Below are positions 1,939-23,392 of a stretch of DNA of 64,000 nt, in pieces. Below the pieces are notes generated by a model. That model was not told where the DNA came from, searched no databases, and saw nothing but the letters and a program-made list of their open reading frames with translations. The translations under genes were made by a program, and so were the position numbers. Position 1 is the stretch's first letter; every line of letters begins with the position of its first letter. Location: the NCBI GenBank assembly GCA_934133005.1, contig CAKPAI010000001.1:298769-362768 (forward strand), written 5' to 3'. The stretch is from an uncultured Clostridia bacterium. Its GTDB lineage: Bacteria; Bacillota; Clostridia; TANB77; CAG-508.

Positions 1939-1979
1939 GGGCATTTTTTGAGAGGATTTTACCCAATTTTTACCCAATT
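1939..1979 (+). repeat. Arm-type direct repeat A1 (GGCATTTT..GAGG..TTTTACCCAATTTTTACCCAATT) ~100 bp inside left core
   Basis: Near-identical ~40-bp copy at ~23260-23299. Contains tandem TTTTACCCAATT x2. Position just inside core is as expected for integrase arm-binding sites. Confidence 0.55.
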
Positions 1980-2065
1980 CATATAGTACGTTTGTTCCGG
2001 TATTTTAAGCTCTTGTAAAGGATAATTTTATTGATAAAAATTTTAATTTTTGGAGGATTTAGATT

Positions 2066-2359
2066 ATGAATAATTTTAGAGAAGTTAATGATAATATTTT
2101 AAGAGATTGGTTAGAATTTAGAGAGGAGACTTTGTGTTGCACTTTAAGTGCTGAGGATAAAAAGCATTTTGTTTATTTTGATGAGATTTCTGGAAAAATT
2201 TTAAAGAATGTTCCAGAACAAAATAAAAAGTATGTCAAGAAACAACTTGATTTGCTTGATGAGAATTTTATGGATTATATTTTCTATTGGAATGAGAAAT
2301 ATTATAGGAATGGTTTTTGTGATGGTGTGCAGCTGATTGGTGGATGTTTTAATAATTAA
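2066..2359 (+). CDS. Hypothetical small protein (97 aa)
   Basis: ORF preceded by GGAGGA RBS (tttggaggatttagattATG). Followed by a 34-bp perfect palindrome. No recognisable domain. Confidence 0.5.
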   Translation: MNNFREVNDNILRDWLEFREETLCCTLSAEDKKHFVYFDEISGKILKNVPEQNKKYVKKQLDLLDENFMDYIFYWNEKYYRNGFCDGVQLIGGCFNN

Positions 2360-2372
2360 TTAAATATCTTTT

Positions 2373-2406
2373 CCAAAGTTTTTTCAAAATTTTGAAAAAA
2401 CTTTGG
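2373..2406. terminator. 34-bp perfect palindrome CCAAAGTTTTTTCAAAA|TTTTGAAAAAACTTTGG (hairpin/terminator or protein-binding site)
   Basis: Reverse complement equals itself over 34 nt. Immediately downstream of the 2066-2359 ORF. T-rich flank. Confidence 0.6.
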
Positions 2407-2461
2407 ATTTTTATGTACTTTTTTCATCTTTTTGAAAAAAGTATCAAAGTAATTGTACAAC

Positions 2462-2487
2462 AAAAGGCGAGTTGATTCTCGCCTTTT
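2462..2487. terminator. GC-rich hairpin AAAAGGCGAGttgattCTCGCCTTTT; bidirectional intrinsic terminator at 3' end of helicase gene
   Basis: 8-bp GC-containing stem with T/A runs on both sides. Overlaps stop of the 2486-5266 minus-strand gene. Confidence 0.6.
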
Positions 2488-5266
2488 ATATTGGATCTAT
2501 TTTTCTTTTAATAAGGATAACATCTTTATTGTCTTCAATATGTTTTATAGTCGATATGATTTTATTTTGGCATTCTGGTGACCAATATATTTTTAATTTT
2601 TCTTTTGCTCTTGTTATTGATGTATAAAAAATGCTATGTGTAATTAGTTCATCTATCTCATTTGTTATTATAACTTTAACAGAATTATATTCCAATCCTT
2701 GTGATTTGTGTATAGAAACAGCATATGCAACTGAAAAAGGTACAATTGTTGTTAAATCTGAATCATCATCCTCGTCAGCGTTTCTATACTTATTAACATA
2801 GAATTTTACAATTGATTTATTATTTTCAGATTCTCCTACCAATTCTAAATCTAAATATTGAATTTCCAATTCATTAATCACTTTATCTATTTCTACTGAA
2901 AACCAAAATCTAAATTCATCCTCTTCTATATCTACGATTCTTCCTTTTAAATTATTATATATTACTGGTGAAAATCTATTAGTATCTCCAAATATAATTG
3001 GATCTCCTACTTTATAAGTACCTAAATCTAGAACTATTGATTTGTTGTTATTGTCACTTTGCAAATAATAATTTATACTATTTATTCCATATAGTCCATC
3101 ATAATTTAGACATAGTATAATTTCATCTTCATCCTGCTTCTTAAATATTTCTTCACCAATTTCTTCTGAAAATTCTTTCTTTACTAACATTTCATCAACT
3201 CTATCATCGCCATTTCTGACCAATTCCCATAAATCTAACAATTCTTGTTTTGTACTTCTCCATGTAAAGTTTAATTCAAATACTGATGTTTGCTTTACTA
3301 ATTTTTTTGATAGTGTAAACCAGTTTCCAAATGTAATAGATTCAATCTGATAAATATCTCCAGCAAGCAATATAGCACTAAAATGTGCTTTTTCTAAAAT
3401 TTGTCTCATATCCGAATTACTAATTATACTACATTCATCAATTATTAAAATGTCGCATTCAGTATCATTATTAGACTCACTAATAAATTTATGTACTGTC
3501 ATAAAATTAGAATTTTGATTCTTTACATTACTCTTTAGATTTTCAACAGCTGAATTTGTATTAGCTAAACATATTTTCTTTTCATTATTATAAAAATATG
3601 TCAAATGTTTAATTAGTGTAGTTTTACCTGTTCCAGCTGCTCCATATATTAAGGCAACTGCACTATTTTCATACATATTTAACAATATATTTTCTTTTTC
3701 TGGACAATTAATCGCGTAAATTCCTTTATTTATAAAACTTTGAAATGATGCTTTATAGCCTTTTATCCCTTTATTTGTCAAGGAATTTAACTTATTAATT
3801 ATATTAATAGTATCATTTTCATATCCATGAATATACAAATTATTATTCTCTATTACCAAGCATCTGTTAGGTTTATGTTTATAATAGATTTTATTATTAT
3901 AAGACTCTACCAATGTTGGAATGTCTCCAAAATTTTTGACTTCATCTATGCTTGTATATAATTTATTATTTTGCTCTGTGTTTTTCTTGACATAACTTGC
4001 CAATAATTCATCATCTCTTCCTTCTATAGGTATTGTCTCTATCAAATCATATCTTGTTGGATTATGATTTATTAATGATGATGCATAAGGCATTTCTTCA
4101 AATGGAATACAACCCCATTGTAAATATAAATCTGATAAAATAGAACAACTATCTGTTGCAAGCTGATTTTTTATGATTCTATTATTGCAATTATATAATA
4201 AGTATCTTAATACAACATTTCCTTTTCTATTATTTTTTATATAATATCTACATTTATCAATTAAGTCTAATATTCCAGTAGTTGTAGAATTATATTTTAT
4301 TTTCTCTTTTGCTTTATCATAATATGTATTATTCATTGTTGCTAAATCTAATAAACTGTATTGTCCTCTTGTTAATAATCTCATAACCTCTAAATATTCT
4401 TTATTATTAGCCTTATAATTTTTATTTATTCCAAAAATTTTATAAAAATTATTTATTTCACATTCTCTTATTGCGACAGACCAATTGTTTATTATATTTA
4501 TTGACATATCTCTTCCAAGAATATTTACTTTTCTTTTAACAATAGATAACTTTATTGAATAATTTGGCATAATATGCATTCTTGTAAATGCTATTATTCT
4601 ATCATACTTATTAACTTTATCTTTAGCTGGTGACAGAGTGACTTCATAATAAATTTTTCCATTAACAAAAAAAGTTTTTATTTTTTGCACATAATATTTA
4701 TCTCCATTGAATTGAGCAGATGTATTAATTGGAACTTGTTTTATTACATCAGCAACTTTTTTATAGTAATCACTAAAAGTACTATCTAAATCAACAGGAA
4801 AATCAGTTATATTATTTAAAATATCTATGTTATAAATTATCTTCATATAATCTTTTAATAATATTAGATATTTATAATATTTAAGCATTAACCTTTCAGC
4901 AGAATCATCATTTTCAACGTAATGTGATCTAGATATTTGTAAATAATAATGAAATCTTTCAATAAATTTTATATTTCCCTTACATTTTATATCATCTAAT
5001 GCTATTCTAACTGTTTTATTATCATAATTAACAGTTTCTGTTTTTCCTGTTAAATATATCTTAACAGCAATATATTCTACAAAAGTTCTTAATGCATTTA
5101 ATAAATTTTGAGATAAAAATCCACGATCATTATCCGAAAATTTATTTATATTTCGTTCAATATTTGAATTAGCTTCCATTATTCTCTTATCTATACTATT
5201 AAAATTATATTTTTCTTCAATTTTTATCATCTTACTTAATCCTTTCTTGTATAATGTAAAAAGCAA
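2486..5266 (-). CDS. Large (926 aa) protein: ~500-aa N-terminal region of unknown function fused to RecD/Pif1-like SF1 helicase (AAA_30 + UvrD_C_2-like)
   Basis: Walker A LIYGAAGTGKTTLIKHL. Walker B ILIIDECSII. C-terminal VSIHKSQGLEYNSVKVII, the characteristic RecD-like UvrD_C_2 motif. N-terminal half has no recognisable motif. Confidence 0.7.
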   Translation of the reverse strand: MLFTLYKKGLSKMIKIEEKYNFNSIDKRIMEANSNIERNINKFSDNDRGFLSQNLLNALRTFVEYIAVKIYLTGKTETVNYDNKTVRIALDDIKCKGNIKFIERFHYYLQISRSHYVENDDSAERLMLKYYKYLILLKDYMKIIYNIDILNNITDFPVDLDSTFSDYYKKVADVIKQVPINTSAQFNGDKYYVQKIKTFFVNGKIYYEVTLSPAKDKVNKYDRIIAFTRMHIMPNYSIKLSIVKRKVNILGRDMSINIINNWSVAIRECEINNFYKIFGINKNYKANNKEYLEVMRLLTRGQYSLLDLATMNNTYYDKAKEKIKYNSTTTGILDLIDKCRYYIKNNRKGNVVLRYLLYNCNNRIIKNQLATDSCSILSDLYLQWGCIPFEEMPYASSLINHNPTRYDLIETIPIEGRDDELLASYVKKNTEQNNKLYTSIDEVKNFGDIPTLVESYNNKIYYKHKPNRCLVIENNNLYIHGYENDTINIINKLNSLTNKGIKGYKASFQSFINKGIYAINCPEKENILLNMYENSAVALIYGAAGTGKTTLIKHLTYFYNNEKKICLANTNSAVENLKSNVKNQNSNFMTVHKFISESNNDTECDILIIDECSIISNSDMRQILEKAHFSAILLAGDIYQIESITFGNWFTLSKKLVKQTSVFELNFTWRSTKQELLDLWELVRNGDDRVDEMLVKKEFSEEIGEEIFKKQDEDEIILCLNYDGLYGINSINYYLQSDNNNKSIVLDLGTYKVGDPIIFGDTNRFSPVIYNNLKGRIVDIEEDEFRFWFSVEIDKVINELEIQYLDLELVGESENNKSIVKFYVNKYRNADEDDDSDLTTIVPFSVAYAVSIHKSQGLEYNSVKVIITNEIDELITHSIFYTSITRAKEKLKIYWSPECQNKIISTIKHIEDNKDVILIKRKIDPI

Positions 5267-5302
5267 AATAATTCTGTAATATAATTACTATTATTTTGCT
5301 TT
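5259..5302. terminator. Hairpin AAAGCAAAATAAT...ATTATTTTGCTTT downstream of fic-like gene
   Basis: 11-bp inverted repeat arms with T-run on minus strand after the stem. Confidence 0.45.
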
Positions 5303-5310
5303 TCTTTAGT

Positions 5311-6246
5311 TTATTTATTTCCAATATAATATTTAATCATTTCTGTGTATTGATCCTGCGCATTTAAACAAGTATCTATTAAATATCCTTTTTCTTTATT
5401 AGTTTGATATTGATTTAGTCCCCTATAATAAAATAGTTTTTCTTTATCTAAAATGATAAATGGTACAATATTATTTTTCAAACATTCTTTAAATGCAATT
5501 ATTCTACCAACTCTACCATTACCATCTTGAAATGGATGTATCTTTTCAAATTTTGCATGAAATTCTATTATTTCATTTATTGTAACTTGTTTCAAAGACT
5601 CATACCATTCTAACAATTTTTTCATATCTCTTTCAACATTTTTAGGATCTGTAGTTTTTAGTCCTCCTACTTCATTAGCTAATTTTTTATAATCTCCCAC
5701 TACAAACCAATCTTTTCTGCTATCTGATGTTCCCTCTTTTAATATTTTGTGAAATTCTTTTATCATCTTTTCAGTTAACTTTTTACTTGCTATATCTAAC
5801 ATATAATCAACTAATTTAAAATGATTAGCCGTTTCTAATACATCATCTAAATCTGTAATAGAATCTTTTTCTGCCAATAAAGTGTTAGTCTCATAAATAT
5901 ATCTAGTCTGATCTTCTGTGAGCTTACTTCCTTCAATATGATTTGTATTATATGCAAATGTAATTTGAGTATTATGATATAGATTTCCTTTTAATTTCAT
6001 ATTTTTTTGTTCTCTTAACACTTCTAAAATATTTATTTTAGATATATCAAAATCATCTTCTTTAATCAATTCATCAACAGAAATTTCAAATATTTCAGCT
6101 AACTTTTTTAATGATTCGATATTAGGTTCTAATGTTCCAGATTCATATTTAGAAACTGTAGCTGGTTTCACTCCTAATGATTCTGCAATTTCAACTTGCG
6201 TCATGTTTTTATTTTCTCTATATAATTTTATTTTTTCTCCTAACAT
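5311..6246 (-). CDS. HTH(XRE)-Fic family protein (Fic/Doc AMPylation-type fold, N-terminal helix-turn-helix)
   Basis: N-term MTQVEIAESLGVKPATVSKYESG (XRE HTH). C-terminal Fic motif IHPFQDGNGRVGR matching HPFx[DE]GNGR. Confidence 0.85.
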   Translation of the reverse strand: MLGEKIKLYRENKNMTQVEIAESLGVKPATVSKYESGTLEPNIESLKKLAEIFEISVDELIKEDDFDISKINILEVLREQKNMKLKGNLYHNTQITFAYNTNHIEGSKLTEDQTRYIYETNTLLAEKDSITDLDDVLETANHFKLVDYMLDIASKKLTEKMIKEFHKILKEGTSDSRKDWFVVGDYKKLANEVGGLKTTDPKNVERDMKKLLEWYESLKQVTINEIIEFHAKFEKIHPFQDGNGRVGRIIAFKECLKNNIVPFIILDKEKLFYYRGLNQYQTNKEKGYLIDTCLNAQDQYTEMIKYYIGNK

Positions 6247-6370
6247 AATAAAAACTCTCCTTTTTGATTATAATAATATTATATCATATCATTTCCAAAA
6301 AAGAAAGTTTTTATTTAATTGTTTTATAATTATTTCTAAAATAGAATCATATATTTTGTTATATACTAAC

Positions 6371-7822
6371 TTAATAAAATAAATTTTCTTTCATTTCAAT
6401 AACCTTTTTATCTATTTCTGAAAAATCATATACAGATGCAAAAATTACTTGATATTCTTTAAAATCACGCTCTAATATCTTTATCATAGCAATAGAAGCA
6501 TTACTTGTTAATTCATTAGTTCGTGGTGAATCAATTATTATAGGTAAATTCAGTCCATATCTATTTTTAATTTCTAATAAATATGCAATCTTAAAAGAAA
6601 ATGACATATGTGTCAAAATTCTTCCTGTTTTGCCTTTTAATTTATTTGTTAATACAAATTTAGAACTATCGCCAATATACTCATCAAATTTTAATTCTTT
6701 GGCATATTTTTTTATAGTATTATAAATTGAATTCAAATACATGTTATTTTCTGATAATATATTATGCAATTCATTCATCAATTTTTGTTTTCTTCTTGTT
6801 AATTGCCCAATTATTTTATCCATTTGTTTTTCATTAATATTGACATCTTTTAGCATCTCATCAACTTCTTCAGCAACAGTTTTTACATTAAATAAAATAT
6901 TTCTATCATTTAGCTCATCTTCAATTTTATTTATTTCGTTTTTAATTTTACCTAAATTTATTTCTAATTCTTTTTTTCTTGTTTCATAGAAAATCTGATT
7001 TTCATTATAATTTAATATATTATCTTTAGCTAGTTTAACGGAATTATCATTAGAAATTTTTACATATATATCTAACTTTTCAAGGTAGTCAACTAATTTT
7101 TTATTATCTTTTAAAATGCCACTAACATCTTTAATATCATTTTTTATTTCAGCCTCTCTTATTTTAAGTAATTTTAATTGACTATATAACTCGTTATCAT
7201 CATTCTTGGTATATGATGTAACTTCTTCAATAATATTTTCACTTTTATATTCCGCAATACTTTTTAGTGATCTATATTTTCGTATTTCATCTTCTATCTT
7301 TTTTATTTCATTATTAATTGAAGAAACATCTTTATCGGATAATGCAGAAATAAAATCTTCTATATTAAATCTGTTTTTTCCTATAATTATTCCTCTATTT
7401 AGAAGAGTCCATCCTTTTTCTTGGTCAATATAAAAAATAGCTAATAAATTATTTAGAATCATAATTTCACTTATGTTAAAAATTTTAGAATGTAGCTCAT
7501 ATAATTGTTCAGGTACTATATAAGTTATTTTCTCATTTTTTTCATTCAAAATAACAATATCTCCTTTTCGTTCAAGTGAATATTGTTGTTCATTTTCTAT
7601 TATATCTATATGTATAAAAAAATCATCAAAAGTCTTTATTCCATCTGTTGCAGGTATGTTATATCCTAGTCCGAATAGTATTGCTCTTAGCAAAGTTGTT
7701 TTTCCTTTTGAATTTTCTTTACTATAAATCAAATTAATCTTATCATCAAAAACAAACTCTCTATATTCATCTTTCCTTTGAATAATAACTTTTCTAATTT
7801 TCATATTTGTTAGCCCTTTCAA
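6371..7822 (-). CDS. lmuB: SMC/ABC-like coiled-coil ATPase; candidate Lamassu LmuB (DUF3732-like)
   Basis: Walker A SKGKTTLLRAILFGLG near N-terminus. ~300 aa of K/E/I/N-rich coiled-coil. C-terminal signature-like KGKTGRILTHMS and Walker B LPIIIDSP. Probable true ATG start at ~7804 (MKIRKV...), 5 nt after upstream stop. Confidence 0.5.
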   Translation of the reverse strand: MKGLTNMKIRKVIIQRKDEYREFVFDDKINLIYSKENSKGKTTLLRAILFGLGYNIPATDGIKTFDDFFIHIDIIENEQQYSLERKGDIVILNEKNEKITYIVPEQLYELHSKIFNISEIMILNNLLAIFYIDQEKGWTLLNRGIIIGKNRFNIEDFISALSDKDVSSINNEIKKIEDEIRKYRSLKSIAEYKSENIIEEVTSYTKNDDNELYSQLKLLKIREAEIKNDIKDVSGILKDNKKLVDYLEKLDIYVKISNDNSVKLAKDNILNYNENQIFYETRKKELEINLGKIKNEINKIEDELNDRNILFNVKTVAEEVDEMLKDVNINEKQMDKIIGQLTRRKQKLMNELHNILSENNMYLNSIYNTIKKYAKELKFDEYIGDSSKFVLTNKLKGKTGRILTHMSFSFKIAYLLEIKNRYGLNLPIIIDSPRTNELTSNASIAMIKILERDFKEYQVIFASVYDFSEIDKKVIEMKENLFY

Positions 7823-8819
7823 ACATTTGCATTATATTTCCTTTTCTTATGAATATTTTTTTTGCAATAATTTTTGAGCAAGCTTTCTCTATAGTTTCCA
7901 TATTGCTATCTTTATTATTTTTAAAAACTATATCGTATATTTCGTTTTCATATTTAATAACAAACTGATTGCTTCTTATTTCTTTATCTTCGATTTTAGC
8001 TTTCATTATTAAATTGCTAATCTTATTATATACATCAAAGTCAGCTTCTTTATAGTTTATTATCCTATCATACGTATCTAATGCTTCAAAAAAAGTTTCT
8101 TCTTCAATTTCCATACTTTCGTCAAACTTTATTGAGTTTCCATCGCCTAATTTTAAGATTAAAAGTCTCCACAAAACATCTTCCTTTTTAAATTTTAATT
8201 TCATATTATTTTGAGTTGCATTATGTAGTGCTTCTGACTCTAACATTTGTAGGAATCTATTTTTATATGGTAGTAAATCCGAACTGATAAAAGTTAAAAA
8301 GTCTTCAATTTTGGCAATTATATATTTCTGTTTTGTTTCTTTATCTTCACCAAAAAAAGGGACTTTAGCAATTATTAATTTATCCCTATTTATGTTCTTT
8401 TGTAATTGATTAAGTTGAATATCAATTTTTTCTTTTGAAGCTAAAGATAATTCATTATATTTGAAAAATGATACTAATTCAAATTCATTTGTTCCAGAGT
8501 TTAATGGGTTCGGTTCTAAATTACTTATATATATTAGGCTTTCTGAATCATTATCATTAACATCTGATAATGATTCCAAAGCCTTTCTTAATTTTGTTGA
8601 ATATGAACTCGTATCACCATCATTAATATTTTGTTTTGATTTTGCTTGTGCATAAATTTTTTTACTATTATTTAATGAAATTTCAATATCTTCCTTTTCT
8701 CCTTCTATCTTCATTTCTTTAAATTTTCCAAAATATTTTATCATTAAATATATAGCTATATTAATTTGAAATTGCCATCCAAAAGCACTTGCACTTGCAT
8801 TTCTATTTATAGCTTTCAT
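7794..8819 (-). CDS. lmuA: PD-(D/E)xK-type nuclease-like protein; candidate Lamassu LmuA (DUF4297/Cap4-nuclease-like N-terminus)
   Basis: N-terminal ASAFGWQFQINIAIYLMIKYF followed by IEGEKEDIEISLNN...YAQAKS, a G-aromatic-x-aromatic-Q then E-x-E-D then Q-x-K pattern. Directly upstream of and operonic with the SMC-like ATPase. Confidence 0.45.
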   Translation of the reverse strand: MKAINRNASASAFGWQFQINIAIYLMIKYFGKFKEMKIEGEKEDIEISLNNSKKIYAQAKSKQNINDGDTSSYSTKLRKALESLSDVNDNDSESLIYISNLEPNPLNSGTNEFELVSFFKYNELSLASKEKIDIQLNQLQKNINRDKLIIAKVPFFGEDKETKQKYIIAKIEDFLTFISSDLLPYKNRFLQMLESEALHNATQNNMKLKFKKEDVLWRLLILKLGDGNSIKFDESMEIEEETFFEALDTYDRIINYKEADFDVYNKISNLIMKAKIEDKEIRSNQFVIKYENEIYDIVFKNNKDSNMETIEKACSKIIAKKIFIRKGNIMQMFERANKYEN

Positions 8820-8904
8820 TTATATTACCTTCTACTCATAAAAATTTAAATTTGGCAAAATTTTAGTAATTTTAATTATTTTTATTATAAGTCAATTTTT
8901 AAAT

Positions 8905-9924
8905 TTATTCTTCCACTTCAATTACAGGTATAAATAATTTCTTTAATTTTATGGTATCTTTAAATTTCTCTGACATATCATCATAGTATTTTAAAATTAA
9001 ATCTACTAATTCACTTCCATTAATAGATTTTATTATTGGATGCTTTTCTAAATATATTTTAGCATTTTTTGCATAATCTGATAAAGTTACAAATAAACCA
9101 TAATCTCCTTCGTCCATAGTTCCTTTTAATGATTGTACTGTAGATTCTGTGATATTTCCATCTTGGCTTTTTACTTGTACAATAATTCTTGGTGGCAATT
9201 CATCTTTATATGCAATAATGTCTTTTCCATTATCTCCTCCGTGAGGACTAATTTTTGTTCTATATCCCATTGCATTTAATAAATCTGCGACAACATCCTC
9301 CAATTCATATCCTTTAAAATTTTTATTTAACTCTTTTAATACATAATCTTTGGTACTTTCTAATATAGTCTCTGAAGTCGCAAATACATTATCGTCATTT
9401 TCTTGATTATTTTTTACCTTCTTTCCATTGTGAAGAGCATTTATAAATTCATCTGCATAATGCCTTACTTGAAAAAATGATAAAAATGATCCTATTTCAT
9501 ATAATGCACCTTGCGAAAATTCTTCTCTTGGTAATTTTTTTAACCATTTTACTTTTCTCTTTTGATTATATTCTGTTTCTCTACTATCAAAGAAATATTC
9601 CCCTTCAATTTGTCCAATATTAATCATTCTATTAAATTTTGTTGGATATATCACATAATCTCCTATTTTAGCTTCATTAACAAATCTAAATAGTTGTCCT
9701 GCAGAACCTGCTATAGATTGTTTAGATTTGTTTGGATAAACTTTATCATAGGCCTTATAATAAGATTCTCTATCTGTATCTATTGTGGATAAATCTCCCA
9801 TTTCATGCCAACCTATAGCTATGACTTCATCTTGTAATAATAAATTTTCATTATTCGTATTATGAATTCCCCAAACTATTATTTCCTCACTCATTATTTT
9901 TCCTTTTATGTTATATTTAATCAC
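8905..9924 (-). CDS. mrr: Type IV (modification-dependent) restriction endonuclease Mrr (Mrr_N winged-helix + Mrr_cat PD-(D/E)xK)
   Basis: Catalytic-domain motif ISPHGGDNGKDIIAYKDELPPRIIVQVKSQ, matching GxDxGxD ... VQxK of Mrr_cat. N-terminal ~110 aa resembles Mrr_N. Confidence 0.8.
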   Translation of the reverse strand: MIKYNIKGKIMSEEIIVWGIHNTNNENLLLQDEVIAIGWHEMGDLSTIDTDRESYYKAYDKVYPNKSKQSIAGSAGQLFRFVNEAKIGDYVIYPTKFNRMINIGQIEGEYFFDSRETEYNQKRKVKWLKKLPREEFSQGALYEIGSFLSFFQVRHYADEFINALHNGKKVKNNQENDDNVFATSETILESTKDYVLKELNKNFKGYELEDVVADLLNAMGYRTKISPHGGDNGKDIIAYKDELPPRIIVQVKSQDGNITESTVQSLKGTMDEGDYGLFVTLSDYAKNAKIYLEKHPIIKSINGSELVDLILKYYDDMSEKFKDTIKLKKLFIPVIEVEE

Positions 9925-10070
9925 TTAAATATGACATATTCTCCTTTTATTCTACTTTTTATATTATTTTAACCTATATTTCTTATTAATGTTTTATTAT
10001 ACTTGAAACTTCTTTGTATTTATACTTTAGCTTGCTCATTTTATATATTTGTTCAACTTAAATTTTTCTC

Positions 10071-13000
10071 CTATTTTATTCTAGAATCAATATATTTCCA
10101 TTCGTCATCTGTTATATTCCATTTTTCACAAAGATACTTATCTGTATAAATCCTATCGTACTTTCCTAAATCAGGTACAAAACAAAATTTATTTCTTAAT
10201 ACATCTTGTGAAACAACAGCTTGTAAAAGTAAAAATCTTATTGTTTTAGTAAATAAATATGATTTAAAATTTTTAACTTCTTCTTCTGTATCAAAAGCTC
10301 CTGCTACAATAAATGATTCTGTACAACATTCACCTGGTTTAGCAATATTCGTATTACCATCATAATAAAATCCAACTGGTTTAGTGAAATCTGTTTGTCC
10401 AGCAATTGGAGATCTAGGAACCAGTAATTTCCATTTATTTAATAATTTATTTTCATCATGTATATCTTTTAAATCGGCATATCTCTTTCCAATCTTTTGT
10501 ATAAACCAGCAAGGAACCCCTTTATCTTTAGGTTTATAATTCGTTGGTAGTCCAAAAGGTTTTTGTGGGGATACCACATTTTCTAGTGTTTTACCATTTT
10601 CTTGTACATTAAAGACTTTCCTAATAATTGGAATAGCTTGGTTAAATCTCACAAATGTATTAAATTCATTTAAATTTCTTGATGAAGAATATTTAACATT
10701 GTTTATAACATTAGTAACTTCACATTCTGTTTTATTATTTTTATCCCATAAGAAATAATTAACACCACCTGCAATATCAGCTGAATCAAAAACATCTCTA
10801 GTATTAGGATAATCAATAATTTTTGTTAAGCATGTATCATTTAGCATATCTTTTCTAAACTCATTCAATCCCATACCTCCAGAAAACCATCTCGATGGAG
10901 TAATCATGCTTATATATTTAGAATCTATTGATTTTGACATATTTATAAACAAATTATATATTGGTTTAGCCTGTGTACCATATCCACCAGTAATTTCTTG
11001 ATATGGAGGGTTTCCAACCACTGCATCGAATTTCATTTGCACTCCTTCCTTATTCCAACTATTAGCATTTAATACATAATTAGTAACTGCTGTTATATTT
11101 TCATCTAATTTAGTTGCAACATCTTCTATTAGTAAAGTATTTACATTATATTCTTTATAACCTGCTAATGTTCTTTTTACAATTTGCATTGCCATTTTAG
11201 TTTTACAAATTATAAAAATATTATTTTCTAATGTTTCTCTCCAAAAATCTTCATTTTTTTCTTCCGTGTAATCTTGCTTATTATAATTTAACAGTCTGTT
11301 CATGTATATACTATAAGAACAATACAAAGCATATAAACCTGTTTTTGAATTTATTTCTAATATTTTAACCTCATTATTCTCAAATAAATCCTTGGTAACA
11401 TTTCCTTGGTTTATAAATCTTGGTTCTTTATCTGGATAATTAAAATTATATCCTCCAATACAGTCTCCTAAATGCATATTTACTGTTTTCCAAGGTGTAA
11501 GTACAGTTTCTTTATCTGGATTTCTAAACATTGAGAATATTTCAGCTAGCTTTTGTATTCTTTCTTTTATAGGCAATGTGTCTGCATATAATGTTGAATT
11601 TCTAATTTGTCTTCCAGCTTCAATAAATATTTCATTATCATAATATTTAGAGAACTTTTTAAATACATCTTTTGTAACGCCATTAGGCATAAATTCATTC
11701 CATGATTTATCATCTACTAATTCAATAAAATTTTGGCTGTCAATATCTTTATTTATTTCAATATCTGCTCCATATATTAGTAATGGTATTCTTATTGATA
11801 TTCCTCTCAATATCGACATTGCTGTTGAAGCTTGTTTTTTCTTTTCTTTTTCTTCTTCAAGTAGTCTTTTTTCTTCTTCAGTTAGCTCTCTCTTAGGTTT
11901 CTTTTTGGCTTCTTCTAATTTCTCATATTCTTCATTATTAAATCCCTGATTGTTAATATCAATACTATCAATTCTTTTTGTTTGTTTACTAACTCCAACT
12001 ATTTTCTTTAAATCATCAAACTCTTTCAAATCTATTTCATCCATTTTTAGTAGATTATCATTATAAATATTTTTATCATCAAATCCATTGGTTACAACTC
12101 TTTGAGCTACTGCTTTTTTTAATTCTCTTAACATTTGAGTAACATCATATTTAATCATTTTAGAACCATCAATTCCAATAATTGGGCAAAAATTTAGAAA
12201 ATGGCTCATAATTTCTTGTGATTGAACTGAACCTGGTCTTACTGATAATTGACCTGCCTGTGCGGCCATTTTTAATGTTCTATCTGGAGCAAAATCAAAC
12301 ACATAACATTTCTCTTTAACTTTGCCTCCAATTTTAGCTGGTGTTTGAACTCTAAATATTGTTTGTAAATAACTAGAAGCCGATGTGGAATATGAGCCAG
12401 AAAGCATGAAAACAGCTGTCCATTCTGGTACACTAACTCCTGTAGTTAATCTTCCACATGAAATTGTAATAGTATTAGTTTCTTCTGGCTTATCTGTTAT
12501 TGCTGTTCTTACCTTCTTTAGAGCTTCTTCATATTTTTCTTCTTCATCACCATTTCCTGCTACATTAACAATCTGAAACATTCCAGATCCAAATACTTCA
12601 TGTTCTTTTAATAATTTACTTAAAGCTTTAGCCTCTTTAACTCCTGGTACCATCCATAATGAATGCCTAAAATATTCAATATACTCTTTAGTTGAATATG
12701 GATAATTAGAATTCTCGTCCTGCTTAGACAATAAATTTAAAAACCTATTTATATCATCTTTATGTACAAAATCTCCTTTTTCATATCCTTTTGGAATAGG
12801 TTTTCGATCAATCTCTAATTCTCCTGTCCAAGTTCTAAAAAATTCTCTAAAGTTAAATGCATTATCCGATACATCCACATATCTAGGCATCAATTTATCT
12901 AAATAATATGTATAAATATTAAGTTGTGGCAAATCGCTATACGGATTAGAATCTCCAAAATGTTCTATATCTGCATCCCATTCTAATTTAGCTGATTGTT

Positions 13001-14012
13001 CCATAATGTAATCCCATGTATAAATTTCATCTTCTTTAAAATCACTTAGTAAATTAAATGGTGTTCCAGATAACATCAATACTTTAGTTTTATAATCATC
13101 ATGTATCTTTACGACACCATCGATTGTCTTTTCTCCTAAACTTGTTCTTGTTCCTTCATGTGCCTCATCAATTACAACTAAGTCCCAGTTATTATTGAAA
13201 ATTAGTTCATCTTTATCAAAATTACCACCTACTTCTGATGATCCTCTTAAATCTTGAATAGAAGCAAAATATACAAATGGTTTATCGCTATCAATTAAAC
13301 TTTCTATATTTTCTCCAAAAGTTTTAGAACCATATTTATAATCACTATCTTTTGAAAATATTTTATTAAAGTCTTCAAACCATCCATTATTTACGACTGG
13401 TCTATGCGTAATTATTATTGTTTTTTTATACTTCTGCCTTCTTACTATTTCTAATGCAGTTAATGTTTTACCAAAACGCATTTTAGCATTCCAAAGCATA
13501 ATATCACTTTTTTTAAAATTTTCAATCGTTTTCTTTATTGCTTCTTCCTGTTCAGGTCTAAATACAATTGGATCCCTATCATAAGAGATCTCTTTTGCAG
13601 TTAACGCTTGTCTATTGTCTTTAACAGCCTTAATAGCTTGCTTAGCAGTTTCCAAATCCACAACAAACCATTCGTTTTGTTTATTCTCTGTATCAAAATA
13701 ATATCTTTCTAATCCGGACCTTAATAAAACATTATGAACTTTTGTATCTTTAAATGAATTACCGTTATTGTCAACTGCTAATTCTGTATATAATAATTCA
13801 TATTTTATACCAGCTGTTGATGTATAACTATTAATCCTATTTTTAGCGGCCTCATTTAATTCTTCAGAATTTGGTTGCAATTCTAACAAAGATTTATTTG
13901 TATGAACTGTAGCCTCTCCTATTTTCAATTTTCCACTATGAAATTCATCATTAATTCTAAAAATATAAATCAACTTATAGCTAAATGTCGACGTAAATTT
14001 ATTTGTTTCCAT
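10071..14012 (-). CDS. 1313-aa three-domain fusion: T5orf172/GIY-YIG-like N-terminal domain + SF2 (ResIII/DEAD-like) helicase + gamma-class N6-adenine DNA methyltransferase; Type ISP/IIG-like single-polypeptide RM candidate
   Basis: N-term YKLIYIFRINDEFHSGKLKIGEAT...NEWFVV (GIY..KIG.T..EWF pattern). Helicase motif I MRFGKTLTALE, II LVVIDEAHEG, III VLMLSGTPFN, VI QTIFRVQTP. MTase motif X TVLTPWKTVNM, motif I ILEINSKTGLYALY, motif IV AVVGNPPYQE. ~300 aa follow NPPY and could be the TRD. Confidence 0.7.
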   Translation of the reverse strand: METNKFTSTFSYKLIYIFRINDEFHSGKLKIGEATVHTNKSLLELQPNSEELNEAAKNRINSYTSTAGIKYELLYTELAVDNNGNSFKDTKVHNVLLRSGLERYYFDTENKQNEWFVVDLETAKQAIKAVKDNRQALTAKEISYDRDPIVFRPEQEEAIKKTIENFKKSDIMLWNAKMRFGKTLTALEIVRRQKYKKTIIITHRPVVNNGWFEDFNKIFSKDSDYKYGSKTFGENIESLIDSDKPFVYFASIQDLRGSSEVGGNFDKDELIFNNNWDLVVIDEAHEGTRTSLGEKTIDGVVKIHDDYKTKVLMLSGTPFNLLSDFKEDEIYTWDYIMEQSAKLEWDADIEHFGDSNPYSDLPQLNIYTYYLDKLMPRYVDVSDNAFNFREFFRTWTGELEIDRKPIPKGYEKGDFVHKDDINRFLNLLSKQDENSNYPYSTKEYIEYFRHSLWMVPGVKEAKALSKLLKEHEVFGSGMFQIVNVAGNGDEEEKYEEALKKVRTAITDKPEETNTITISCGRLTTGVSVPEWTAVFMLSGSYSTSASSYLQTIFRVQTPAKIGGKVKEKCYVFDFAPDRTLKMAAQAGQLSVRPGSVQSQEIMSHFLNFCPIIGIDGSKMIKYDVTQMLRELKKAVAQRVVTNGFDDKNIYNDNLLKMDEIDLKEFDDLKKIVGVSKQTKRIDSIDINNQGFNNEEYEKLEEAKKKPKRELTEEEKRLLEEEKEKKKQASTAMSILRGISIRIPLLIYGADIEINKDIDSQNFIELVDDKSWNEFMPNGVTKDVFKKFSKYYDNEIFIEAGRQIRNSTLYADTLPIKERIQKLAEIFSMFRNPDKETVLTPWKTVNMHLGDCIGGYNFNYPDKEPRFINQGNVTKDLFENNEVKILEINSKTGLYALYCSYSIYMNRLLNYNKQDYTEEKNEDFWRETLENNIFIICKTKMAMQIVKRTLAGYKEYNVNTLLIEDVATKLDENITAVTNYVLNANSWNKEGVQMKFDAVVGNPPYQEITGGYGTQAKPIYNLFINMSKSIDSKYISMITPSRWFSGGMGLNEFRKDMLNDTCLTKIIDYPNTRDVFDSADIAGGVNYFLWDKNNKTECEVTNVINNVKYSSSRNLNEFNTFVRFNQAIPIIRKVFNVQENGKTLENVVSPQKPFGLPTNYKPKDKGVPCWFIQKIGKRYADLKDIHDENKLLNKWKLLVPRSPIAGQTDFTKPVGFYYDGNTNIAKPGECCTESFIVAGAFDTEEEVKNFKSYLFTKTIRFLLLQAVVSQDVLRNKFCFVPDLGKYDRIYTDKYLCEKWNITDDEWKYIDSRIK

Positions 14013-14991
14013 TTTTTCTACTCCTATTTAATAATGTAGTATATTTTATTGGTCTATTAGTTTCCCAATTCATTATTTTACAATAAATTCCATTATGTTT
14101 TTTATAATTATTTTTTTCACAGCCTATACAACTTATTTTTTGTGGCACATCTCCAAATAATGACATATTAATTACTTCATCTGTTTTGCAACTATATGGA
14201 ACTACAAATTTTGTGCCGTCCATTTGCCACACATTCCAAGAAATAATTTTCGCAATCTCTATAATATCTTCAATAAGTGGTTTTTCTTTAAATTTGTATA
14301 AATAATTATCTATAAATGTATACAACAAATTTTCTCTTGCAATCAACAAATTATCTCCTTGAAATTCAAAACCATAAGTATTTTTATATGCTTTCTGTAC
14401 CCAATCCATCCATTCTAACTTATCATTTACATTTTCATTTATAACTCTTAATTTTCTATCTAATAATCCTATCCTATTATTTACTTCTATAATATCACCT
14501 GAAACATTATCATATCTACTTACCAAATATGGTGCTTCTCCACAGGATACTTCCAATCTAGTATTGTAAACATAATCTTGCCATGTTTTATTCGTTTTAG
14601 TTGGAAAATTTATTTTTTCCTTATTTGAAATCCAACTTTTATCACTCTCAATATTAAAAAAACTATCTTCCCCTGACCAAGCATTATCTATTAAATTATT
14701 TTGTGAATTACAAATCCAAGATGGAGTAAAAACTTCAGCCTTATCTCTTATTCTCTTTTCTTGTTCTTTTTTACTTTTCTTTACTCTAGGTTTAATTACA
14801 TTTCCATTATAGCCTGTAATATTTTCAATTTTTATATTATCTTTAACTCCAAATCCTATACCTTTATCTCTATAATTATCAGTAGCCCAAATAATATTGT
14901 TATTTGTCGTATGATCTTTAAGAAGGATATGTAATAATTCATAATTTGTTTTTAGCAATATATTTTCCTGTATATCTGCACTATTTTCCAT
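13999..14991 (-). CDS. Hypothetical 330-aa protein translationally coupled (start/stop overlap) to the helicase-MTase fusion; Cys-rich C-terminus
   Basis: Its stop overlaps the ATG of the downstream 1313-aa gene. Contains AEVFTPSWICN but no MTase motif I/IV. C-terminal CIGCEKNNYKKHNGIYCKIMNW cluster. Function unassigned. Confidence 0.5.
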   Translation of the reverse strand: MENSADIQENILLKTNYELLHILLKDHTTNNNIIWATDNYRDKGIGFGVKDNIKIENITGYNGNVIKPRVKKSKKEQEKRIRDKAEVFTPSWICNSQNNLIDNAWSGEDSFFNIESDKSWISNKEKINFPTKTNKTWQDYVYNTRLEVSCGEAPYLVSRYDNVSGDIIEVNNRIGLLDRKLRVINENVNDKLEWMDWVQKAYKNTYGFEFQGDNLLIARENLLYTFIDNYLYKFKEKPLIEDIIEIAKIISWNVWQMDGTKFVVPYSCKTDEVINMSLFGDVPQKISCIGCEKNNYKKHNGIYCKIMNWETNRPIKYTTLLNRSRKNGNK

Positions 14992-15094
14992 ATTTTCCTC
15001 CCTTCAAATCAGTATAAACATTCTATACTATTTTATATCACAAATTATTCTTTTTCTCAATATAATTCTTGATATTTCTCTCTATTATATATCT

Positions 15095-16032: not shown

Positions 16033-16887
16033 TTAGCATTTAGTTTTATCGCTTTTGCTAGCTTTTTCTTTTTCATTTATATCATTTTTTATGAGTGAAA
16101 TTCCATAACACATTTTGTATAAAATTTGTATGAATTCTTCTGCTAATTTCCTATTTTCAATAGCAATTTTCTCCAACAATTCTTCTCTTGTATATCTAGT
16201 TGTAATTACTATTGGTAACTCGTTTTCATATCTATTGTTAATAATTCTATACAACTTTTCTAAAGCCCATTTAGTTATTGTTTCACTCCCAAAATCATCG
16301 ATAATTAACATATCAACATTAGAATAAAGTTCCATAATTTCTGACTCTGTCGTAACAGTTTTATTAAAAGATTCTTTTATTCTATCTGTTATAGATCTAG
16401 TCCTTTCCAATAATGCAATTTTTTTATTTCTAATAATCTCATTAGCAATACTTGCTGCTAAATGAGTGTTTTCATATCCTATACTTCCATATATAATAAT
16501 TCCATCTTTAACTTTATTTTCTATACATAAATGTGTATATTTCATTAATGTTGTTATTGTTTCTTGGTTATCTTTAAATCTATCAAAATTTAAAAAATTA
16601 CAATATTTTAATTTCTTTTTTATACAACCATCCTTATATATTTTATTTATAATTTCTCTATACTTTCTTTGTTTTTCTTTTTCATTTTGCTTTGAATCAT
16701 ATTGTTTCCAAAATGCAATTGCTTCACTACAATCACACCTTTCATATTCTACCATATCGTGATTAACATTTGCATAAAGATAACTTAATCCTAATGGCTT
16801 TAATTTTTTATTGCAAAATCCACATTTTGCACCTTCATTGGTGATAACTTTAAAATTCACATTTTCTAAATCCACTTCTATTCTCAT
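16033..16887 (-). CDS. DnaC/IstB-like AAA+ helicase loader with N-terminal Zn-finger (phage replication protein)
   Basis: Walker B-like MLIIDDFGSE. LPIVITTRYTREEL (DnaC box). N-terminal CGFCNKK...CDCSE cysteine pairs. Confidence 0.65.
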   Translation of the reverse strand: MRIEVDLENVNFKVITNEGAKCGFCNKKLKPLGLSYLYANVNHDMVEYERCDCSEAIAFWKQYDSKQNEKEKQRKYREIINKIYKDGCIKKKLKYCNFLNFDRFKDNQETITTLMKYTHLCIENKVKDGIIIYGSIGYENTHLAASIANEIIRNKKIALLERTRSITDRIKESFNKTVTTESEIMELYSNVDMLIIDDFGSETITKWALEKLYRIINNRYENELPIVITTRYTREELLEKIAIENRKLAEEFIQILYKMCYGISLIKNDINEKEKASKSDKTKC

Positions 16888-17359
16888 CTCCTTCTTTAGC
16901 TAATATATTTTTAATCTTATTTTCTTCTTGTGTGTTATCCAACGTTATTGTAACGTTACTTTCTTCTTTTTCACTTTTCAACTTTTCACGATATTTTTGT
17001 TGTCTAATTCTATTTTGTTCTTTATATTTTTCATATGGCTCAATGCTTTGATACTTGTCCCAATTTTTAATTTTATATGCTTCATCTTCTACAATTAGCA
17101 TATTTAATTCTAGAAATTTTTGAATAATTTTTTCGATTTTTTTCTTAGATTTTCCCATAATCTTTGAAAAATTTTCTATTGTCATTGGTTTATTATTGCC
17201 TATTACTAATTTTCCATTTCTATTGCATTCTACAGCAATAATTAATAATTGAATCCATACTCTAAAATATGTATCTCCATCTGGTTCTCTTAACAGTATT
17301 TGAATTTTCCTATTTGAAAATATTTTTAATTCTATTTTCAACCATTGTAAACTATACAT
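16850..17359 (-). CDS. Phage replisome organizer N-terminal domain protein (DnaD-like)
   Basis: MYSLQWLKIELKIFSNRKIQILLREPDGDTYFRVWIQLLIIAVECNRNGKLV matches the conserved WIKL..IF...KI..L...P.GD...WI.LL.A..N..G.L pattern of phage_rep_org_N. Confidence 0.7.
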   Translation of the reverse strand: MYSLQWLKIELKIFSNRKIQILLREPDGDTYFRVWIQLLIIAVECNRNGKLVIGNNKPMTIENFSKIMGKSKKKIEKIIQKFLELNMLIVEDEAYKIKNWDKYQSIEPYEKYKEQNRIRQQKYREKLKSEKEESNVTITLDNTQEENKIKNILAKEGDENRSGFRKCEF

Positions 17360-17387
17360 ATCCTCCTTTCCTCGCTTTCTTTGTAAT

Positions 17388-17633
17388 CTAACTTATAGAT
17401 TTTTGTTCCATATTTTTTAAATATTCATCTAGCGCTTGTACTCTAAATAAATACTTTCCACCAACTTTAGAGCATGGTATTTGCTTTCTTCTTACTAATT
17501 GATTTATCAACCAGTAAGATACACCTAAATACTCTGCTGCTTCTTTCATTGTTAGTGTCGTCCTTTGAATTTTTGGTAATTCCATAATATCACCTCCTGT
17601 TTTTTGAAATTTAGTATTGACTTTTGTTAACAT
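17388..17633 (-). CDS. xis: Excisionase-family helix-turn-helix DNA-binding protein (Xis/MerR-like); probable true start ~17585 (MELPKIQ...)
   Basis: LTMKEAAEYLGVSYWLINQLVRRKQIPCSKVGGKYLFRVQALDEYL is a typical excisionase-family HTH. Strong RBS caggaggtgatattATG before internal Met. Confidence 0.65.
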   Translation of the reverse strand: MLTKVNTKFQKTGGDIMELPKIQRTTLTMKEAAEYLGVSYWLINQLVRRKQIPCSKVGGKYLFRVQALDEYLKNMEQKSIS

Positions 17634-17733
17634 TTGTATTATATTGTCAATAGTTAACTTTGTAAATACTTTTGGGTTTATTTTGATAGCAGGTTAACTT
17701 TAAGTGAATTTATAAACTGTTAACGGAGGAATT
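17586..17733. promoter_or_regulatory. Divergent promoter/operator region with four GTTAAC palindromes (approx. 17625, 17653, 17692, 17718) and a TTGACT -35
   Basis: Four copies of GTTAAC (three as TTGTTAAC/GGTTAAC/AGTTAAC + CTTT) within ~100 bp between divergently transcribed xis-like gene and 17734 gene. Same motif recurs twice in the int promoter. Confidence 0.5.
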
Positions 17734-18783: not shown

Positions 18784-18809
18784 AGGAAAAGTTTATTGCT
18801 TTTCCTTAT

Positions 18810-19712: not shown

Positions 19713-19733
19713 CTTATATTTTCTCGCTTTCTT

Positions 19734-21032: not shown

Positions 21033-21578
21033 TTATTTTCCCTTTCTAAGCTCTACAGGTAAATAGCTATCTATTTCTTCATCTGAAAATGTATTATCTT
21101 TTTGTATTTTTAAAGCTTTTGATGCTTTTTTTACAGCTCTATCACATGTAGATAAGCTTTTCTTGCATATATTATGATATTTTAATAATATCTCATCTCT
21201 CTTCTTAGTAGCTTCATCCAATTCTATCTTATTTAATTTTATATCTGATAATACACAAATGGTTTCATTTTTTAATTGTAAAAATTCTAATGCGCTTAAT
21301 TTATGACTATCTCTTGATTCTTTTAAATTATATGTTTTATAAAAAGTATTTATAAATAGACATATAGCTGAAAAAACAGTGGTAATTATCTTTAAAGCAA
21401 CTTCATCAATAAAAAAGCAAGTTAATAATCCTGATGTAGTAATTGCTGAAGATAATATCTTGCAAAATTCTAAAACATTAAACCAAAAAGAATTAATATC
21501 ACTATGTTTTTCATGAATTTTATGGTTCCATACTATTGATGCAAAAATTTGTCTTATCTCTGATTCTATTATATTCAT
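21033..21578 (-). CDS. Two-TM helix protein, SLATT-like candidate membrane effector (181 aa)
   Basis: Two adjacent hydrophobic helices (FNVLEFCKILSSAITTSGLLTCFFI ; ALKIITTVFSAICLFINTFY) followed by ~100-aa helical/coiled C-terminus. Directly upstream of the nucleotidyltransferase. Confidence 0.45.
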   Translation of the reverse strand: MNIIESEIRQIFASIVWNHKIHEKHSDINSFWFNVLEFCKILSSAITTSGLLTCFFIDEVALKIITTVFSAICLFINTFYKTYNLKESRDSHKLSALEFLQLKNETICVLSDIKLNKIELDEATKKRDEILLKYHNICKKSLSTCDRAVKKASKALKIQKDNTFSDEEIDSYLPVELRKGK

Positions 21579-21699
21579 ATAAATTCCTCCTATATATTTG
21601 TCGTATTATATCATATTTTCTGTAAATAATCCAGTATTTTCAAAGGATTTTAGCTTTCAAATTTTCGACATTTTTTTACATTTTATTACATTTACAAAT

Positions 21700-21823
21700 T
21701 TTTTAAGTTTATTTTTGAAATCTATTGCAATTTGTTAACTATTATTGTATAATATTTTTGTTAACATTTTAATTAAACACTCCTCCCACCCATAGGCATA
21801 CTTGAAAGGAGGTGAAATAAGTA
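21700..21823 (+). promoter_or_regulatory. Integrase promoter: TTGCAA -35 / TATAAT -10 (approx. 21726/21748) flanked by two TTGTTAAC repeats; GGAGGTG RBS
   Basis: tctattgcaatttgttaactattattgtataatatttttgttaacat, then gaaaggaggtgaaataagtaATG. Confidence 0.55.
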
Positions 21824-23017
21824 ATGGCTGGGAGTATAGAAAAAAGAGGAAAAAATAGTTACAGGCTAACAGTATCTGAAGGATTTGGCCTAAACGGAAG
21901 ACCTATGATACACAGAAAAACAGTCCACGGGACTAAAAAAGATGCAGAAGTTGAACTAGCAAAATTTGTTACTGAAGTACAAAATGGTTTAGTACTTGAT
22001 GGTAAATCTCTTAAATTTTCTGAATTTACAGAAATATGGAAAAGAGATTATGGTTCAAAAGAACTTGCTCCATCAACATATAAAAGATATTGTAGAATGT
22101 TAGAAACAAGACTTTTACCATACTTTGGACATTTTTATATTAACAAAATAAAACCAACTGACATTATGAAATTCTATGACTTACTTGAAAAGGATACTCA
22201 GTTAGTTAGGAAAAAAGGTAACAATGGTTCAAAAACAAAAAAGCCCTTATCTGGTAAAACAATTTTAGAGCATCACAGATTATTACGAGCAATGCTTCAT
22301 AAAGCAGTTTATTGGCAATTAATAGTGGCGAATCCTGCTGAACGTGTTCAACCACCTAAAGCTAGAAAACCAAAAAGAAGATCTTATGATGATGAGCAAA
22401 CTAAAATATTACTAGAAAATTTAGAACTATTATCTAGCGAAGATACTAAATACAAAGTTGCAATCATCCTTACAGTATTTACTGGTGTTCGTTTAGGCGA
22501 GTTAATGGGTCTAGAATGGCAAGATGTTGATTTTAAAAACGGAATTATCAGTATTAATCGTTCTAGTCAGTACCTAGCAGATATGGGAGTTTTCACAAAA
22601 GTTCCAAAAACAGAAAGTTCCATTAGAGAAATTGCAATACCTGAATTTATTATTTCTTTACTTGAGAAATATAAGTTATGGTATGAAGAACAAAAATCGA
22701 TTTACGGCGAATTATGGACGAATTCCGATAGGTTATTTGTACAAGCAGATGGCAAACCAATGCATCCTTCTACAATTAGCAAATGGTTTGTAAAATATGT
22801 TGGTCAAATAGGATTACCTGTAATTAATTTTCACGGATTAAGACATACAAATGCAAGTTTACTAGTTGCACAAAATATTGATATAGCAGTAATTTCTGCG
22901 AGACTAGGACATGCACAAATAAGTACTACACTTGATTTTTATGTGCATCCACTACTTTCTCACAATAGAAAAGCTGGATATGCACTAGAAAATTTGTTAT
23001 TACCAACAAGGTCTTAA
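21824..23017 (+). CDS. int: Tyrosine site-specific integrase (phage integrase family, AP2-like arm-binding N-terminal domain)
   Basis: N-term KRGKNSYRLTVSEGFGLNGRPMIHRKTVHGTKKDAEVEL (arm-binding domain). C-terminal HGLRHTNASLL...LGHAQISTTLDFYVH (R..HxxR..Y catalytic box region). Confidence 0.85.
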   Translation: MAGSIEKRGKNSYRLTVSEGFGLNGRPMIHRKTVHGTKKDAEVELAKFVTEVQNGLVLDGKSLKFSEFTEIWKRDYGSKELAPSTYKRYCRMLETRLLPYFGHFYINKIKPTDIMKFYDLLEKDTQLVRKKGNNGSKTKKPLSGKTILEHHRLLRAMLHKAVYWQLIVANPAERVQPPKARKPKRRSYDDEQTKILLENLELLSSEDTKYKVAIILTVFTGVRLGELMGLEWQDVDFKNGIISINRSSQYLADMGVFTKVPKTESSIREIAIPEFIISLLEKYKLWYEEQKSIYGELWTNSDRLFVQADGKPMHPSTISKWFVKYVGQIGLPVINFHGLRHTNASLLVAQNIDIAVISARLGHAQISTTLDFYVHPLLSHNRKAGYALENLLLPTRS

Positions 23018-23259
23018 TTTGAACTTTTTTCTAATTTTCACAAATTACAAATTTTCACGATTTTTTATAGAAGGCAATTCAAAAAAACAAGTATTACTAG
23101 GCAGATGAATTTGAAAGGCAAAGGAGCATATGTTTATATGTGACTGCGTTTCAAATGAAATCTAACGACGTAACACGCAGTTTATTTTTTGAATTTTCCC
23201 ATTGCCTTTTATAATGTATAAAAAGTATAAAATTTTAATGAATTTTTATTGATATTTAT

Positions 23260-23299
23260 GGCATTTGAGGTATTTATTTTACCCAATTTTTACCCAATT
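23260..23299 (+). repeat. Arm-type direct repeat A2 (GGCATTTGAGGTATTTATTTTACCCAATTTTTACCCAATT) ~120 bp inside middle core
   Basis: Matches 1939-1979 including tandem TTTTACCCAATT x2. Confidence 0.55.
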
Positions 23300-23392
23300 T
23301 GACATAAGAATGCCATTTTCAATCATTATTGCAACCAATTTAAAGGCATAAAAAAATACCCACAGTCATTGAAACTGTAAGTATTTATAATT

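Follow-up and report, generated by a model that had tools for sequence, protein, structure and literature searches.

The 64-kb stretch of uncultured Clostridia DNA analysed here (the window, 64,000 nucleotides) contains an integrative island of 21.6 kb, element 1, which lies between two cores and occupies positions 1838-23437. Element 1 can with good confidence be regarded as a tRNA-fMet island, whose heterobivalent integrase uses arm repeats together with an anticodon-stem-loop core for recombination. The 40-bp direct repeats close to the two ends of the island are very probably arm sites by which the island's own integrase enters and leaves the initiator tRNA gene. This reading is based on the anatomy of the arms and its conservation, on the joint variation of the two arms, and on the co-variation of the arm motif with residue 16 of the integrase. 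The sites in question are as follows:

1957..1979, + strand: integrase-distal arm sites, TTTTACCCAAT at 1957-1967 and 1968-1978, plus T
23277..23299, + strand: integrase-proximal arm sites, TTTTACCCAAT at 23277-23287 and 23288-23298, plus T
1821..1837, + strand: integrase-distal core, GACCTTCGGGTTATGAG, where the chromosomal flank meets the left end of element 1
23421..23437, + strand: integrase-proximal (middle) core, GACCTTCGGGTTATGAG; the element ends exactly after ...TTATGAG

As read from the sequence, the left 40-bp repeat, GGCATTTTTTGAGAGGATTTTACCCAATTTTTACCCAATT, occupies positions 1940-1979 of the + strand, and the right one, GGCATTTGAGGTATTTATTTTACCCAATTTTTACCCAATT, positions 23260-23299 of the same strand. 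An earlier note on this DNA had given the right copy correctly and had started the left copy at 1939, which is the third G of a GGG; its statement that the repeats have the same orientation at both ends agrees with their location on the + strand. The part common to both repeats is a 23-mer composed of two tandem 11-bp TTTTACCCAAT units followed by T. The tandem 12-mers described previously are thus 11-bp units in reality, since the two 12-mers share one T. Four copies of the exact 12-mer are present in the window, all within the two arm repeats, and the expected number of chance recurrences of the exact 23-mer in 64 kb at 26% G+C is about 1e-8 according to a rough estimate from base composition. 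The repeats differ from the core and sit inside the element on either side, less than 150 bp from the core. The gap between the left core and the left tandem is 119 bp, and that between the right tandem and the middle core is 121 bp; the previously suggested distances of about 100 and about 120 bp fit the whole 40-bp module and not the tandem itself.

Occurrence of the motif at many unrelated loci would speak against arm sites, as the same note had pointed out. Outside the integrase family, the 22-mer was matched by just 2 of 2.9 million IMG/VR contigs, both of them unrelated large viral contigs without an integrase. A search of the arm region against phage and plasmid collections gave no match, and the tRNA part of the query alone matched. 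Arrays of 4-5 tandem TTTTACCCAAT / TTTTACCCGAT units were noted in two IMG/VR contigs of 152 and 183 kb (L096 and L097), which are unrelated large viral contigs with no integrase nearby.

Relatives of the island were collected by scanning one genome per species. A total of 249 were found, and 80 of them (integrase 82-98% identical), selected on integrase protein similarity alone, were kept; all originate from uncultured Clostridia of the gut, CAG:273 and CAG:343 among them. The pattern CCCAA-N6-CCCAA is found once per locus, always 148-151 bp before GGGTTATGAG, and the tandem at this fixed distance is present in about 75 of the 80 relatives. In the 80 loci, the tandem lies anywhere from about 155 to 315 bp from the stop codon of the integrase gene, while its distance from the core stays fixed. 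Beyond the arm sites, a single further match to CCCAA-N6-CCCAA was detected in 840 kb, both strands included. The comparison with homologous islands recommended in the earlier note finds the tandem at a fixed core distance in relatives, and the core-plus-arm geometry recognized there is real and kept across the whole integrase family, with fixed arm-core distances on both sides.

The arm motif itself exists in several variants. In addition to the window motif, TTTTACCCAA, TTCCCCAA and TTTTCCCAA were found in relatives. Two copies of TTTTACCCAAy accompany integrases 92-100% identical to that of the window, TCTTTCCCAAC TTTTTCCCAAA those with 90-93% identity, TGTTTCCCAAnnTCTTCCCAAT an integrase with 84% identity, and TCTTCCCCAAC TTTTCCCCAAT (the type-C 20-mer) those with 82-84% identity. 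A metagenome scan for the type-C 20-mer yielded at least 120 stretches; about 100 of those listed are AT-rich gut contigs, and about 20 are GC-rich and unrelated. The AT-rich matches occur in two contexts, with the core either 148 bp downstream (proximal arm) or 131 bp upstream (distal arm), and both spacings equal those of the window. Among the matches listed, the core gap of type-C distal arms is 120-122 bp, being 121 bp in 45 of 49; the distal gap in the window, 119 bp to the tandem, is likewise 121 bp in the register of the 20-mer. In six contigs among these matches, the 20-mer is present in two copies on the same strand, separated by 17-27 kb; the first copy has the distal context and the second the proximal one. 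Both ends are visible in these six contigs, so a variant element bears its own motif in both arms, and the same variant in both arms is documented in seven elements when the window is included. Decayed remnant arms are without the motif. A scan of IMG/VR for the type-C motif gave 0 matches. As for the GC-rich matches, soil and other environmental contigs (L110, L114, L129, L134, L144, L172, L178, L202 and others) contain TTCCCCAACTTTTCCCCAAT, often followed by AAGCGG; they appear to represent a conserved feature unrelated to the integrase family.

An indication of the protein that reads the motif was obtained from the integrase, which is encoded close to the proximal arm:

21824..23017, + strand: tyrosine integrase, 397 amino acids (aa) (Pfam Phage_integrase PF00589, 1.9e-25)
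21824-22003, + strand: predicted arm-binding domain, integrase codons 1-60 (AlphaFold2 prediction; PF14657 matches of homologues)

Residues 1-15 and 33-60 of the integrase are nearly invariant in the family; residues 16-19 and 24-31 change with the motif type. Residue 16 was compared with the base preceding CCCAA in both units of the tandem at 75 loci, with the following result:

T16 with A/A: 41 loci
V16 with C/C: 21 loci
I16 with T/T: 11 loci
I16 with A/A: 1 locus
S16 with C/A: 1 locus

The pairing of T with A, V with C and I with T is obeyed in 73 of the 75 loci, and the S16 locus, with its mixed C/A pair, is intermediate. The sole exception (L060) is recombinant, and its breakpoint falls near nucleotide 800 in the integrase gene: nucleotides 1-800 match an I16 lineage, and the remaining part of the gene and the adjacent arm match a T16 lineage. 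Three different sequence backgrounds carry I16, and two carry V16. In the predicted structure, residue 16 sits in the second strand of the N-terminal domain; by strand alternation, it would lie on the same face as R14 and S18. Further arm variants comprise a G-type, TTGTGCCCAAATGGTGCCCAATT (L158, about 1183), and mixed A/C pairs (L094 and L071), of which the L094 pair goes with S16.

According to the AlphaFold2 prediction, built with 55 diverse homologues, residues 1-60 form three strands (3-9, 12-21 and 27-35) and a helix (38-53) with a mean pLDDT of 85. A single-sequence model of the N-terminal domain shows the same strand-strand-strand-helix topology. Arm-binding domains of the IntTn916 group likewise consist of three strands and a helix and are often missed by Pfam (PMC8138268). 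The Arm-DNA-bind_4 profile PF14657 matches 29 of 50 homologous N-termini (best E-value 6e-6), and PF12167 matches 4 of 50. The predicted fold and these profile matches, along with the co-variation of residue 16, support the earlier suggestion that the repeats are candidate sites for the N-terminal domain of the integrase. In the rest of the protein, a core-binding SAM-like domain was identified at residues 65-119 (SAM_3 PF14659, 1.6e-14). Among solved structures, the best relatives are 3NKH and Tn1549 Int (6EMY, residues 139-379, E 2e-13); similarity to lambda Int is marginal (E 0.5-0.9), and the best matches among phage integrases show less than 45% identity. The IntTn916 subgroup is marked by a conserved beta-hairpin insertion that separates strands 2 and 3 in its catalytic domain (PMC8138268).

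Element 1 also encodes a small DNA-binding protein, probably its recombination directionality factor, and several conserved boxes are located beside the arm sites:

17388..17633, - strand: Xis-like HTH_17 protein (Pfam HTH_17 2.4e-12; Tn916-Xis 1.2e-4)
1947..1955, + strand: TTTGAG(A)GG box, conserved, 1-2 bp ahead of the distal tandem
23264..23270, + strand: TTTGAGG box, conserved, ahead of the integrase-proximal tandem
23302..23331, + strand: ACATAA and CATTATTG half-sites, conserved, straight after the proximal tandem and flanking a variable spacer

The first alternative is that the tandem repeats are sites for this directionality factor, modelled on the head-to-tail X1/X2 sites of lambda. 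The presence of an HTH_17 gene similar to Tn916 Xis on the element agrees with it, direct repeats one helical turn apart would suit cooperative binding of winged-helix proteins, and the CCCAA block is as invariant as the Xis-like protein. However, the DNA-binding region of this protein, TLTMKEAAEYLGISYWLINQLVRRKQIPCSKVGGK, is identical in A-, C- and T-type elements; the Xis-like protein thus cannot track the variable base, which follows integrase residue 16, and it was rejected as the reader of the motif. The repeats are, moreover, symmetric in both arms, as is typical of integrase arm sites, and the invariant boxes listed above are better candidates for an invariant protein. Overall, the alternative seems unlikely.

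As to these boxes, TTTkGAGr is found ahead of the tandem in each arm of type A and type C elements and is unchanged across motif types; the TTTGAG(A)GG box may be bound by an accessory protein. ACATAA and CATTATTG are invariant in 72 distinct sequences and are confined to the integrase-proximal arm; the spacer between them is variable and 16-17 bp long. RNAalifold analysis of the block after the proximal tandem gave zero consensus pairs, and a hairpin at ACATAA...CATTATTG was therefore rejected. Since there is no consensus hairpin, a site for a dimeric protein seems more likely, and the pair of half-sites is a candidate accessory-protein site.

The second part of the reading concerns the core and its target gene, for which the following feature is essential:

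23395..23437, - strand: element-borne 3' half of initiator tRNA-fMet, from the anticodon loop to CCA, read from the sequence

The 17-bp core GACCTTCGGGTTATGAG is present in exactly two copies in the window, at 1821-1837 and 23421-23437, so that both junctions share 17 identical bp; a 13-bp version, TTCGGGTTATGAG, is found again at 38598-38610. The 23395-23437 portion matches annotated tRNA-Met and tRNA-fMet genes elsewhere. In 15 relatives the core runs directly into CCCGACGAGCTGCCAACTGCTCCACCCCGCG, the 5' half of the tRNA, and ARAGORN detected an intact tRNA-Met(CAT) at the junction of the core and the 5' half in all seven loci checked. Such joins span all three motif types. Because the core joins the tRNA 5' half in these relatives and the tRNA found by ARAGORN is intact, the family is considered to integrate in the anticodon stem-loop of tRNA-fMet. 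The core of attB corresponds to the anticodon stem (TCGGG / CCCGA) enclosing the loop CTCATAA, with inverted half-sites flanking an overlap of about 7 bp. On integration, the element gives the tRNA a new 3' half and leaves it intact.

The flanks of the island were also compared. On the left, a heat-shock protein (HSP20) gene and a 134-aa open reading frame are constant in 23 contigs, and this flank terminates in a decayed tRNA-like remnant; in relatives, conservation drops sharply just beyond the distal core. On the right, what follows ...TTATGAG is different in 7 of 10 contexts in which the identical element is found, and likewise in most of the 80 relatives. The differing right flanks had raised the possibility of low-specificity insertion, which was rejected on the basis of the 15 relatives in which the core continues into the 5' half of tRNA-fMet; further islands, stacked in tandem, make up the variable right flanks. 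An empty site was sought with the 134-aa flank protein, and every contig read was occupied. A subfamily (L121, L142, L166, L193 and others) lacks the copy of the tRNA T-arm and acceptor, has the core CCTTAGAGTTATGAG and keeps the 148-bp arm-core spacing.

Taken together, the system is proposed to work in the following way. We infer that the integrase binds the arm repeats and bridges arm and core, and the site of strand exchange is deduced in the same manner. The catalytic and core-binding domains would act on the 17-bp core, and strand exchange would most likely take place inside the 7-nucleotide anticodon loop TTATGAG, where the presumed cleavage positions lie. The N-terminal domain of about 60 residues would bind two tandem 11-bp TTTTACCCAAT sites per arm, and residues 1-60 would recognize a TTTTACCCAATTTTTACCCAAT duplex. 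With arm sites about 120 bp from the core, in a single orientation and one helical turn apart, integrase molecules bridging arm and core could fold an attP of about 300 bp (or the pair of attL and attR) into a recombination complex. The Xis-like HTH_17 protein would set the direction of the reaction, probably via conserved boxes nearby, which may be TTTGAGG and ACATAA...CATTATTG.

Several points weigh against this proposal. The N-terminus of the window integrase falls below every Pfam arm-domain threshold. A profile search of PDB sequences with this N-terminus retrieved no solved arm-binding domain, and phmmer and profile searches of PDB sequences returned designed proteins only; sequence and fold searches against solved structures are uninformative for a domain as small as this one. 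The correlation at residue 16 is partly phylogenetic. Agreement between the two arms is established in types A and C alone; for type T, a search via P0122 for the two ends of an element met contigs that were too short and gave only a decayed distal-arm remnant. Conservation is fairly high throughout the attP region (60-99% per column), and motif conservation by itself is for this reason weak evidence. Finally, the window copy may not be at a functional attB, because the tRNA 5' half is missing from the window, where ARAGORN likewise found no intact tRNA. In closely related contigs (L002, 15319-15394; L006, 19446-19521), an intact host tRNA-fMet is located several kb to the right, in the orientation opposite to the element-borne half. 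Together these findings suggest that the original target gene was rearranged or lost in the lineage of the window.

Another explanation is that the repeats are iterons or operators of another protein of the element, such as a replisome organiser acting with a DnaC-like loader, or a regulator, so that the circular form of the element would have an origin or control region spanning the joint. Element 1 does encode a Phage_rep_org_N protein and an IstB/DnaC-like ATPase, and circularization would bring the tandem pairs to a distance of about 280 bp; such junctions are present in metagenome contigs. Nevertheless, no copies of the motif lie near the replication genes (16033-17359), exact copies are limited to the two arms, their spacing follows the core and not any gene, and the co-variation is with the N-terminal domain of the integrase, which makes this explanation very improbable. 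Least credible is a functionless relic of an ancient duplication of arm DNA, kept because the whole attP evolves slowly: the general conservation of the attP region fits it, but from lineage to lineage the two units and the two arms vary together, with CCCAA, the 11-bp phase and the core distance preserved, and decayed remnant arms have lost the motif.

Besides the integrase and the proteins named above, element 1 encodes a SLATT-SMODS pair and a DUF6076 protein, together with an Eco57I-type restriction-modification enzyme of 1313 aa, an Mrr nuclease, a helicase and a Fic protein. At least 77 public contigs carry the identical integrase; among these copies the integrase-side backbone is constant and the restriction-modification cargo varies. 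In a comparison of window positions 2486-15000 with L001-L010, a type IIG enzyme was found in the window and L001, a type I system in L002 and a type III-like system in L003-L006. The gene content of the distal half of the island points to a hotspot of cargo exchange.

A second mobilisable element occupies positions 23438-38610 of the window, bounded by the middle core and the 13-bp core on the right. It encodes a KAP NTPase, a DUF6076 protein, an HTH_17 protein, a NikA/MobC-like protein and a relaxase, as well as its own tyrosine integrase (33796-35109), whose N-terminus resembles an arm-binding domain. Tandem GGGGTAT repeats of its own are located close to the two ends of this element, at 23554 and 23565 and at 38495 and 38507.

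Outside Gammaproteobacteria, arm sites have been mapped in very few attP sites; the mv4 preprint names L5, Tn916, CTnDOT and mv4 only (bioRxiv 10.1101/2023.11.06.565760). The present analysis provides a sequence-level attP map, with core, two tandem arm pairs and candidate accessory boxes, for a very common island family of uncultured human-gut Clostridia (CAG-273-like). Islands of this family shuttle defence systems, among them restriction-modification systems and a SMODS-SLATT pair. The proposed pairing of one residue with one base in arm recognition helps to annotate island ends and to engineer orthogonal integrases. The current understanding of how integrases work is unchanged. Arm-type sites are already textbook knowledge; what goes beyond routine is the one-residue/one-base co-variation and the possible separate arm specificities of stacked islands, neither of which is proven. 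A tentative and rather doubtful extension is that there is a recognition code (residue 16 T, V, I or S with base A, C, T or mixed; a G variant exists) and that the related islands, which all compete for the one tRNA-fMet site and are often found in tandem, keep private arm sites, each integrase excising its own element alone and neither its neighbours nor a composite of several. If true, divergence of arm sites would serve as a mechanism of identity, or orthogonality, for co-resident islands, and the family would represent a natural series of switchable arm specificities.

Among known systems, Williams reportedly described in 2002 a class of islands and prophages that enter the anticodon-loop region of tRNA genes. 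Like them, the element bears the 3' half of the tRNA from the anticodon loop to CCA, its integration rebuilds an intact tRNA, the integrase gene adjoins the tRNA, and several elements are found in tandem at one site. It differs in that the window is without the tRNA 5' half and that, at the left junction, the displaced 3' remnant has decayed. With lambda Int and its attP sites P1, P2 and P'1-P'3, the island shares a tyrosine integrase that is heterobivalent and has its arm-binding domain at the N-terminus; the general scheme is set out in bioRxiv 10.1101/2023.11.06.565760 and PMC9791396. Also common to the two are short repeats that do not resemble the core and lie on either side of it, an attP spanning about 250-300 bp, and a separate excisionase. 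Lambda has five arm sites, unevenly placed, whereas the four sites found here form two tandem pairs, symmetric at about 120 bp and in a single orientation; in addition, the core is the anticodon stem-loop of tRNA-fMet, and no IHF or Fis sites were identified. The IntTn916 subgroup (Tn916, Tn1549 Int and phage mv4 Int) is similar in its hosts of the Gram-positive/Firmicutes type and in the arm-binding domain of three strands and one helix, which is predicted here (PMC8138268). Tn1549 Int 6EMY is among the closest solved structures, a likeness by sequence, and a Tn916-Xis-like partner is present as well. Tn916 and Tn1549 differ by low-specificity insertion, which is not directed to a tRNA gene. 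Phage mv4 shares a tRNA-derived core inside a complex attP (bioRxiv 10.1101/2023.11.06.565760), but its target is the 3' end of tRNA-Ser and not an anticodon loop. The system of element 1 is most likely one of lambda-type heterobivalent recombination, more closely of the Tn916 or mv4 type.

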